From Mustelus asterias (Eukaryota), in NCBI RefSeq assembly GCF_964213995.1, contig NC_135802.1, positions 99,572,001-99,636,000 of the forward strand: DNA of 64,000 nucleotides, given 5' to 3'. The position numbers were made by a program, and so were the translations under genes. Shown here in pieces: positions 41,706-44,035 of this stretch. Positions within the stretch are counted from its first letter, which is position 1, and the number at the start of each line of letters is the position of its first letter. The notes below the pieces were generated by a model that was not told the origin of the DNA, did no database searches, and saw only the letters and a program-made list of their open reading frames with translations.

Positions 41706-42341
41706 AATCCAGAATTACAGGAGGGCTACTGCAACCCAGAAGAAGTGTTCTGAAGGACTAAGTTTAAAGTTTTCTTCCACTACAGAGCTGCAGATATGTG
41801 GAAGATTCTCCCTGCATGCTCATCACCAAATTCCTTCAAAACAAAGTTTCTTACTTATTTGGTTTGGAAACAAAATTGCCAGTTATAAGGGGAGATGTAG
41901 GTTTTGGATTATCAAACATCCTTAAGAGCCAGCTGTGGGTCAGTTTACACTCTAGGGGCCTGATTTTACCATTTTCATTCTAAGTGCCGAATCTGGGCGT
42001 AGTACAGATCCGACCTAGAAATCCACGTTCAGACGCCCCCATAAGCTTTCAGCCATCTCCAGTCCGATCCGCGCTGTGGACGGGGCTTATCACTGCCGGA
42101 ATGATCGGAGTTCTGAACTGCTACATGTGCAGTTTGAAAAAATTTTGAAAAAGCGCACCCGTGTCGGGAAAGAAAAAAAAAGTGGAAAGCGGAGAGAGCA
42201 GCTCGGAGCAAAAAGCAGCAGCGAGGGTGTATCTCGGGGGTGGGGGGGGGGGGTGCAGATGGATCTCTTGTGGGGGTGGAGGGGGTCCGCTGCCACTCTG
42301 CGGGCGATCGGTGGGGAGGGAGGGGGGCAACAGTGTTAAAT

Positions 42342-42690
42342 GCATCGCCCATCTCCATCAATATGAAAGGATCGCCCATATCCAGCAGGATGAAGTCATT
42401 CCATATTACGATCAGCACTAAAATGCCGCCAATATATATCATTATGAAAATGTCACCCCGACCCATTGACACGAAGTTATCGCCCATTCCCATCAGTGAA
42501 ACAACAGCTCCCATATCCTTTAGAATGAATATTTATCCCATCTGTTTCATGATGAAAATTTCGCTCAGATCCATGACTATGAAAGCATGGGAAATATTCA
42601 ACAGTTTGAAAAATGATCTTCCATCCATCAGTGTGAAATAGCTCATGTATCCATCAGTCTGAAAATATCTCCCTCATCTATCAGTCTAGA
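42342..42690 (+). repeat. Degenerate 27-bp tandem repeat (11 in-register units, then decaying units)
   Basis: Units such as GCATCGCCCATCTCCATCAATATGAAA and GGATCGCCCATATCCAGCAGGATGAAG. 9-aa periodicity in ORF 42240..42641. Confidence 0.8.
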
Positions 42691-42981
42691 AAATATCTGT
42701 CACATCCAAAAACCCCTCTCATCTCCATCAGTGCGAATATAGTGTAGGCATACATGAGCATGGAACGATTTCCCTTGTCACAAATTAAGAAAGCATCTCC
42801 CCTATTCATCAGCACAGAAAATATCTTCTGCATCCATCCCAACATCTCTCAATCAATCGACATGAAAGATAATATCTAACAAACAGAACAAACATTCCTA
42901 GAGCAAGCAACTAGCGCAAAATCTCCAATGGACATAAATATGAAAATTGACCTCCAATCACTGTAGTGATGGTGTATCCCT

Positions 42982-43137
42982 TTATAGGCCCAGCTTGGTC
43001 CTTCTCCAGTGTCTCCTCTTGGAATTGTACCTGATCTTGTTGCCGGTTTTCATGCGGATCCACTGTGGAATCGGCCGGTTCTGCTTCACCTTCTTAGCAA
43101 AGAATCGCTTGATCCTGAAGGTTTTGTGGGATGGCAT
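42982..43137 (-). CDS. RPL39: Intronless, intact 60S ribosomal protein L39 (eL39) copy; retrocopy or processed pseudogene carried inside a DNA transposon
   Basis: [51 protein letters not shown], 51 aa, three differences from human RPL39 as I recall it. No introns. GCGGCCATG start context. CCTTCCTCCC TOP-like tract at 43164-43155. Confidence 0.93.
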
Positions 43138-43823
43138 GGCCGCACGTCCGCTCCGGGAGGAAGGATTTGTTCCTCCGGTGGGTAGGAGGGATCGCCCGCA
43201 GAGTGGCAGTGAACCCACCTGCCCCCCCCCCGCCCACCAGAGATCCATCCGCCCCACCCCCCCACCAGTGAGCAATCGGGCCTCCCCCCCACCACCAGAC
43301 AACGATTAGCCCTCTCGCCCCCCCCTCCCCTCAGAGATACATCTGACCCGCCTCCTCCTCCTCCCACCCCTCAGAGATACATCTGACCCGCCTCCCTCCT
43401 CCCCCACCAGAGATACATCTGACCCGCCTCCCTCCTCCCCCCTCCTCCCTCCCAGAGGATGATCTGGGTCAGAGAGCCGTTGGAGACTCTGAACCCGCTC
43501 TTTGGAAGCTGCAGCATCGGCTTCAGACTTTTATTTAGCAGGTCTCTAAAAGCGCGGATCCGGAACGGTACATGCGGCGGTAAAGTGGGAAATGATGATA
43601 GAGTTGGGCGGGCAGTTCATTAAATCGATGTAAATGCATGCTAATGCATTTAAATTGTCAGTCCGCCCGATTTTGGCACGCAACGGATCCCCGCCATTCG
43701 CGGCTCTCGGTAAAGTGGTGATTTGCTCAGACGCAGGTGCAGATCGCGATAAAGACCTCACACTCGACTTTACCGTGATTTCGCGCCTGAAAATGGGCGC
43801 AAATTGTTGGTAAAATCGGGCCC

Positions 43824-44035
43824 TAGATGTGGGTCAGTTATTTACACCCTAGATGTGGGTCAGCGGGTTACACTCTAGATGTGGGTCAGCGGGTTACACT
43901 CTAGATGTGGGTCAGCGGGTTACACTCTAGATGTGGGTCAGCGGGTTACACTCTAGATGTGGGTCAGTGGGTTACACTCTAGATGTGGGTCAGCGGGTTA
44001 CACTCTAGATGTGGGTCAGTCAGTTGCACTCTGGC
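43824..44035 (+). repeat. 26-bp minisatellite (TAGATGTGGGTCAGCGGGTTACACTC), about 8 units
   Basis: Units are directly visible. A related single unit lies left of the Harbinger element (about 41931-41955). The array runs into a tRNA-SINE head at about 44020-44075. Confidence 0.9.

Follow-up and report, generated by a model that had tools for sequence, protein, structure and literature searches.

Several systems have been described in which a DNA transposon carries captured host sequence. Close to the element reported here are the Pack-TIRs of animals, including Ssk-FB4 of the fly (Tan et al., 2021; PMC8277862). As described there, they are likewise non-autonomous TIR elements with host sequence inside, and they too have different target site duplications (TSDs) per copy, short microhomology at the breakpoints and a capture in an unstable fold-back element. 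The cargoes in that paper are genomic DNA, intronless copies of multi-exon genes being discarded, and the multicopy cases comprise three or four copies; Harbinger and shark are absent from its main text. In contrast, the cargo here is spliced, comes from two sources on different chromosomes and is found at 63 loci of one family and likely more than 1,400 elements of a second. The bat Helitron HelibatN424, which carries RPLP0 (Thomas et al., 2014; PMC4224331), likewise shows a DNA transposon of a vertebrate multiplying a retrocopy of a ribosomal-protein gene. However, the Helitrons in that account are rolling-circle elements whose cargo kept its poly(A) and its own TSD, with six copies, or 118 over all four cases, whereas the vehicle here is cut-and-paste, LINE hallmarks are absent and the cargo is duplicated in inverted orientation. 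The hAT-borne histone H3 of Pseudocercospora and related fungi (Dhillon et al., 2019; PMC6710886) is again a spliced housekeeping coding sequence (CDS) in a TIR transposon, present in hundreds of copies in several species; it differs in being fungal, in belonging to the hAT superfamily, in the destruction of the copies by RIP and, as far as the account goes, in having neither a fold-back pair nor a vehicle switch. Lastly, the Pack-PIF/Harbinger elements of plants (PMC8903248) share the superfamily of the vehicle and the capture of host DNA. They are plant elements, the words intron, mRNA and retro are absent from the text, and their TSDs are mostly TTA or TAA, compared to 5 of the 23 exact TSDs here. 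Going by the sequences and by these descriptions, the combination of a spliced cargo, a cut-and-paste vertebrate vehicle, such a copy number and a fold-back pair appears to be new, each of the nearest cases sharing part of it. A literature search by title and beginning of the abstract gave no account of the element among the top-ranked matches, although the tables of one survey (10.64898/2026.06.26.734816) may list copies.

The element lies in a window of 64,000 nucleotides, i.e., the whole stretch of DNA that was analysed, from a genome of 3.68 Gb. It is a 1,868-bp transposon copy at 41956-43823, flanked on both sides by TAG, and belongs to a family that is called A here (Table 1). We consider it about 85% probable that this is a non-autonomous Harbinger-type family with spliced RPL39, which was likely captured once and has since, likely as a neutral passenger, been distributed by the transposase that full-length elements with matching ends encode. 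An initial annotation of the window had recognized the length of the element and its TAG duplication, but gave 15 bp for the TIRs, which measure 16 bp with one mismatch. The duplication is supported by the empty site, as this is one unit of a 26-bp minisatellite interrupted by the element. A 3-bp TSD is a feature of PIF/Harbinger elements, of which the usual TIR is 25-50 bp (PMC9179366); the 16-bp TIR of family A is shorter. An Rfam search gave 0 matches at E ≤ 1.

Table 1. Features of the family-A copy and its surroundings, in positions of the window.
Feature	Position	Strand	Remarks
Left TSD, TAG	41953-41955	.	family target preference ACAC-WWW-GTGT
TIR, 16 bp	41956-41971	+	1 mismatch compared to the opposite end
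Arm, Y end	41956-42326	.	contains half of internal inverted repeat (42239-42309)
Second cargo, 638 bp	42327-42964	-	degenerate array of 27-bp repeats, source on G000:C20
First cargo, piece of spliced RPL39 mRNA	42965-43159	-	about 22 nt 5′UTR, CDS, 17 nt 3′UTR
Intact RPL39 ORF, 51 aa	42982-43137	-	PF00832, E = 4e-23
Linker common to families A and B	43160-43189	-	composed of short inverted arm-sequence copies
Arm, X end	43190-43823	.	other half of internal inverted repeat (43190-43266); 36-40-bp tandem units
TIR at right end	43808-43823	-	
Right TSD, TAG	43824-43826	.	
26-bp minisatellite, 7.6 units	43823-44019		unit contains target site; partial unit left of element
Cargo-free MITE, 868 bp	46338-47205		related but different subfamily; TSD ATT

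The cargo-free neighbour in the window had been taken for an empty sibling with matching arms. It exists as an 868-bp TIR element with an ATT duplication, but its identity is only 69-73% to the arms of the element (BLAST) and 79-81% to the family-A ends. It thus represents a different subfamily and is ruled out as the empty progenitor. This MITE adjoins the edge of a reverse-transcriptase-like LINE fragment (45887-46330). Another such fragment lies at 7479-8375, both judged by eye, and a decayed Harbinger-type transposase fragment is present at 56906-57562 (PF13359, E = 0.02).

Family A was delimited by its junction pattern, which has 54 matches in the genome, compared to 0 for a control. Merging two motif lists and adding two further loci gives 63 loci on 27 contigs, including the C20 array source locus, which is no element. 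Sixty loci were fetched, 15 of them duplicates; 13 of the 45 left had no detectable end or junction, so that 32 two-ended copies remained. An exact 3-bp TSD is present in 23 of these, with 15 different TSDs among them, and eight more differ at one base; 4-bp duplications were found in 0 of the 32. The preferred target is palindromic, ACAC-WWW-GTGT. As copies with shared junctions have different 3-bp TSDs, the composite moved as a unit. Several composite copies with different TSDs were what the initial annotation had expected if the gene copy was moved as transposon cargo, and this proposal is borne out by the 63 loci, the 15 different TSDs and the existence of transposase elements with the same ends. 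The many loci with different TSDs exclude its other option, namely one retroposition event at this site into a MITE already present there.

The transposase elements belong to the Harbinger family DDE_Tnp_4, for which the genome has 10,689 first-look candidates. Of 20 such loci retrieved, 15 carry the TIR motif, either at both ends or at one of them, and several are complete, measuring 4.3-6.6 kb with 3-bp TSDs. TIRs together with 3-bp TSDs are present in the partners L120, L125, L128, L129, L130, L131 and L133. The two transposases tested (L125 and L129) match PF13359 (DDE_Tnp_4) with E ≤ 2e-36, the best value being 7e-37. Family-A ends are about 90% identical (88-92%) to those of Harbinger-transposase elements: in the family majority, the first 210 bp of the Y end reach 88-92% and the first 300 bp of the X end 90-92%, each compared to six transposase-bearing elements. 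Together with the 3-bp TSDs, these common ends support the earlier assignment to PIF/Harbinger. A second ORF, on the opposite strand, has a conserved reading frame in seven of the eight partners examined. The Myb-like frame of L133 resembles PF13873 and PF13837 with E = 0.003, a value that does not reach their curated cut-offs, and the pieces of L125 and L129 gave no match. From the shared ends we infer that family A was mobilised in trans by partner proteins. Three near-identical Harbinger elements with long open transposase frames (L115, L116 and L123) are located on small unplaced contigs (C96, C140 and C111) and are possibly young or part of a tandem block.

The cargo of about 840 bp had been described as containing an intronless RPL39 ORF. 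The ORF is indeed complete and spliced at both introns of the parent gene, but only about 195 bp of the cargo derive from RPL39, the other 638 bp being an array from another chromosome. The parent was located with SNORA69, which marks intron 2 of host RPL39 and has one match, on contig C14. As anticipated for a vertebrate RPL39, the host gene contains introns: it has three exons and GT-AG introns, with SNORA69 in the second. Exons 1-2 and 2-3 are precisely joined in the cargo, both introns being gone. Both ends of intron 2 of the C14 gene (L082-L083) have the same 8 bases, so that a deletion in the DNA could account for the loss of intron 2 taken by itself, though not for that of intron 1. The cargo includes about 22 nt of sequence ahead of the ATG; it begins downstream of the host pyrimidine tract, which was not captured, and is truncated by about 20 nt relative to the mRNA. 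The TOP-like 5′ end seen earlier, CCTTCCTCCC, turned out to be a private variant of the family linker, for which the family majority is CCCTCCTCCC. At the other side, the family-A cargo ends 17 nt past the stop codon, at mRNA position 229, compared to 288 in family B. This is far short of the host AATAAA at 356, and the earlier remark that the cargo lacks such a signal holds for both AATAAA and ATTAAA past the stop. Compared to the host protein, the window copy has the family-wide change M17V and the private change L13F, plus two silent changes, whereas the family-A majority CDS equals the host CDS save for the one base of M17V. Six family-A copies (L013, L033, L041, L045, L049 and L060) have the host allele at codon 17 and perhaps form an older subfamily with a host-identical protein. 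An exact look-up of four distinct copy proteins found none in the protein collection.

The remaining 638 bp, which separate RPL39 from the left arm, are a degenerate 27-bp array, a second cargo that was not part of the initial annotation. Among the listed matches of the array motif, its source is the one that has neither TIRs nor RPL39; it lies on C20 (L185, about 9424567-9429484), where the array runs past both captured ends. Identity between the family-A majority array and this source is 93.2-93.5%. Where the array meets its neighbours there is microhomology, of TGC at the arm and of CT at the RPL39 3′UTR, and the C20 cargo fits DNA-level copying. The source is about 2 kb away from a SPRY-domain exon and received a later, LINE-like insertion of 4.3 kb. 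In L185 (G000:C20:9422500-9431000) and L193:9252-9800, the array of about 2 kb shows decayed 9-residue repeats on the minus strand; it may belong to a TRIM/B30.2-type gene, either as an exon that is now dead or as an array within an intron. A functional coding exon was rejected, as Pfam gave no match though two frames are open in the 27-bp part, as indels of the copies are mostly not multiples of three, and as the C20 source contains stops besides the insertion. A match of the array motif on C87 is unrelated.

With host sequence between TIRs, a composite that transposes as a unit and parent loci that lack the transposon (no TIR motif in L185, L191 and L192, no BLAST arm match in L082-L084), the element works like a Pack-TIR. 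It nevertheless falls outside the definition of Tan et al. (2021), which asks for a genomic-DNA cargo with introns, since the RPL39 cargo has none.

A second, far larger family with a fold-back arrangement of RPL39, family B, had also gone unnoticed in the initial annotation. An RPL39 protein search of the genome gave 3,412 candidates, of which 150 were scored. A 3′UTR pattern that is absent from family A has 1,743 matches, and 18 pairs among the first 100 of these lead to about 1,400 elements as a lower bound; family B thus likely exceeds this number. B-type ends have 1,503 exact matches. In the typical arrangement, mRNA positions 35-288 directly abut an inverted copy of 35-248, and TSDs are exact 3-bp duplications in 17 of 19 cases. 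Derived forms occur as well: in L197-L199, L204, L214, L221 and L222 the 3′UTR part alone is present (mRNA 220-288), mostly as a hairpin, and L085, L096, L103 and L201 have a common internal deletion (135-207). The contigs of run X20 contain frameshifted pieces of family B and one arm/array contig of family A; this run may be DNA, RNA being a guess, and it was given no weight as evidence of expression.

The majority arms of families A and B are 85% identical, while 223 of the 228 positions of linker plus RPL39 (98%) agree, and their X ends track different partners, the one closest to that of B being L132 (90%). Unlike arms, a near-identical module and different partners indicate that the module likely crossed between subfamilies, so that the RPL39 cargo would have switched vehicles; the divergence of the arms could also stem from arm replacement instead of cargo transfer. 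A GC-rich inner motif before the linker is common to both families. Neither family descends from the other, as B has the longer 3′UTR and A is without the four derived coding changes of B. Alleles diagnostic of B are C27G, A97T and C114G in the CDS and the loss of one G where exons 2 and 3 join; those of A are A49G and the joint of 3′UTR and array. Both share one 5′ joint, which points to one capture as the likely event. Three of the 51 distinct A copies (L046, L058 and L152) have family-A bodies with the B frameshift and another B allele, which suggests ectopic gene conversion between RPL39 copies, and two B-type copies (L137 and L140) have the unshifted joint. Judged by these alleles, exchange between A and B went on after the presumed module transfer.

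Contigs from 4 of 20 listed runs of other organisms were searched, and related forms are present in three of these organisms (B, E and G). In organism B, a 445-bp contig has 11 differences that equal, in number and at the listed places, the private changes of the window copy, so that this organism likely has the family-A master; in its RPL39 stretch, B-type alleles dominate. Organism E has an array contig that is nearer to family A than to the C20 source. In organism G, one contig matches exactly the captured span of the array at about 89% identity and then runs on unlike it, which fits the source locus. The RPL39 plus linker stretch of organism G has a far greater depth, depths not being copy numbers, with host-type alleles and no frameshift, which would fit an amplification of the unshifted ancestral form in that organism.

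How the mRNA sequence entered the vehicle can be approached from the cargo-free L119, which has similar arms and an internal hairpin, and of which the cargo replaces, and does not duplicate, the centre of about 130 bp. In the proposed course of events, breaks would occur at this hairpin in a cargo-free vehicle and would be repaired by template switching onto a foreign template, initially RPL39 cDNA or a young retrocopy, and in family A subsequently the C20 array. Recombination or conversion in the shared GC-rich inner motif would then have carried the module from one MITE subfamily to another, after which lineages may have amplified different versions that spread by Harbinger transposition. 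The capture step is inferred, as among the loci fetched (150 of the 3,412 candidates being scored) neither a young retrocopy that could have been the donor nor an element bearing one complete RPL39 with a poly(A) tail was seen. Alternatively, LINE retroposition could have brought RPL39 mRNA into a MITE, the fold-back in B and the C20 capture in A later removing the poly(A) end, with the same spread by transposition. We regard this entry as possible but doubtful. The precise splicing and the 5′ truncation of about 20 nt agree with it, as do the precedent of RPLP0 in a bat Helitron (PMC4224331) and the existence of two older, ordinary RPL39 retrocopies without TIRs (L139 and L149), which are 83-87% identical to the host mRNA. 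These retrocopies share 3′UTR alleles with the transposon cargo, suggesting that the host changed at two UTR bases after the capture. Both families are without the mRNA 3′ end, so a tail may have been lost later. However, of the marks of a processed pseudogene only the loss of introns is found: none of the A or B copies fetched has a poly(A), a poly(A) signal or a duplication flanking the cargo, secondary loss being possible. Moreover, repair by template switching would be expected to leave what is seen, a 5′ joint pieced together from short inverted copies of the arms and the loss of about 130 bp at the centre of the hairpin.

Like a hairpin-RNA locus, family B has a long inverted repeat of gene-derived sequence, and its mirror pairs, if transcribed, would make double-stranded RNA that matches the essential gene RPL39. 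It could therefore be supposed that the fold-back form is not a passenger, its hairpin or small RNAs either regulating host RPL39 or shielding the element from silencing, given that silencing a family-B element would also hit RPL39. A sample of 25 elements, taken in order along C1 after five duplicate rows were dropped, has RPL39 on both strands in 24 cases, and the predicted fold of L062 is one near-perfect stem of about 290 pairs. When 30 elements were picked by their B-type ends alone, 17 had RPL39 sequence within 1.5 kb, which in seven of these is the 3′UTR part alone, and three further elements retain just the linker. The frameshifted fold-back form, in which one G of the junction is lost, is also about 20 times commoner than the in-frame form (973 junction matches compared to 49, the latter including the host gene), and in plants there is a described precedent for epigenetic conflict driven by capture (10.1101/777037). 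In spite of this, such a function is unlikely. Both fold-back arms are whole in just 4 of the 25 elements, and the two arms within an element resemble each other no more closely than those of separate elements do (3.4% compared to 3.8% divergence, n = 10 pairs, p = 0.36), which gives no sign of homogenisation. Codons 2-35 show no constraint (72 nonsynonymous to 19 synonymous changes), and CpG sites have decayed by 7%, compared to 2% at other sites, so that the copies appear methylated. In addition, the vehicle had an internal hairpin before the capture, and a palindrome can thus arise without selection. Improbable to the same degree is a scenario in which read-through transcripts of more than 1000 hairpins would yield RPL39 double-stranded RNA and small RNAs, silencing of the element would collide with RPL39 expression, and the swappable module would aid its vehicle.

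The initial annotation had left room for an expressed paralog carried by the transposon. Mammals have an intronless RPL39 copy of this kind, RPL39L, which is a retrogene by origin. RPL39L is a single functional gene, whereas the copies here are without constraint. Selection was assessed in 30 family-A copies picked by the array and not by the ORF, of which one partial copy was dropped. In the remaining 29 copies, 85 nonsynonymous changes, four of them stops, stand beside 40 synonymous ones; from the mutation spectrum of the array, a fraction of 0.73 of all changes would be expected to be nonsynonymous (p = 0.23). The ORF is intact in 19 of the 29, compared to 60% in neutral simulations (p = 0.57). 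Without correction pN/pS is 0.58, a value attributed to transition and CpG bias, and the pattern is neutral only once the mutation spectrum is corrected for. Family-A copies differ from the family majority by about 2%, and 9% of the CpG sites are changed compared to 2% elsewhere, i.e., change there is four to five times faster, as expected of methylated DNA. A paralog would accord with the ORFs that persist in these unselected copies, with the retained start context of the host and with a master CDS that is one change away from the host, whereas the array cargo is about 7% away from its source. However, chance suffices to explain a single change in 156 nt on the master branch, the ORF survival and the substitution ratio equal the neutral expectation, and neither the TOP-type pyrimidine tract of the host nor a poly(A) signal is present. 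Purifying selection on the ORF, by which a functional retrogene is recognized, was thus not found, and a working paralog is highly improbable, although there may be weak selection on a few copies. By their substitutions, family-A copies likely are passengers that decay neutrally. Processed pseudogenes of independent origin, segmental duplication and an artefact of the assembly can be dismissed. Retrocopies of ribosomal-protein genes are common (10.64898/2026.06.26.734816), but on 27 contigs identical internal junctions are found with differing flanks and TSDs, and contigs of independent runs contain the same sequences.

Families A and B thus represent gene capture by DNA transposons at high copy number, real and mobile, and likely non-functional as a gene. 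In animals, multicopy gene capture by TIR transposons was previously described as rare and DNA-derived, and where DNA transposons of vertebrates had amplified retrogenes, the Helitron copies numbered from a few to roughly a hundred. In the present case, a spliced housekeeping mRNA has become a main component of a MITE family of likely more than 1,400 copies. It has probably moved to another vehicle, has been joined by a second cargo and has given rise to a gene-length palindrome. In these genomes it would be a DNA transposon, and not LINE activity, that inflates counts of RPL39 'retrocopies' as well as RNA-seq mapping and the annotation of genes. The families moreover offer a natural test of whether captured sequence of an essential gene causes small-RNA cross-talk in the vertebrate germline, with built-in controls in the cargo-free, in-frame and fold-back versions and in species that have different versions.
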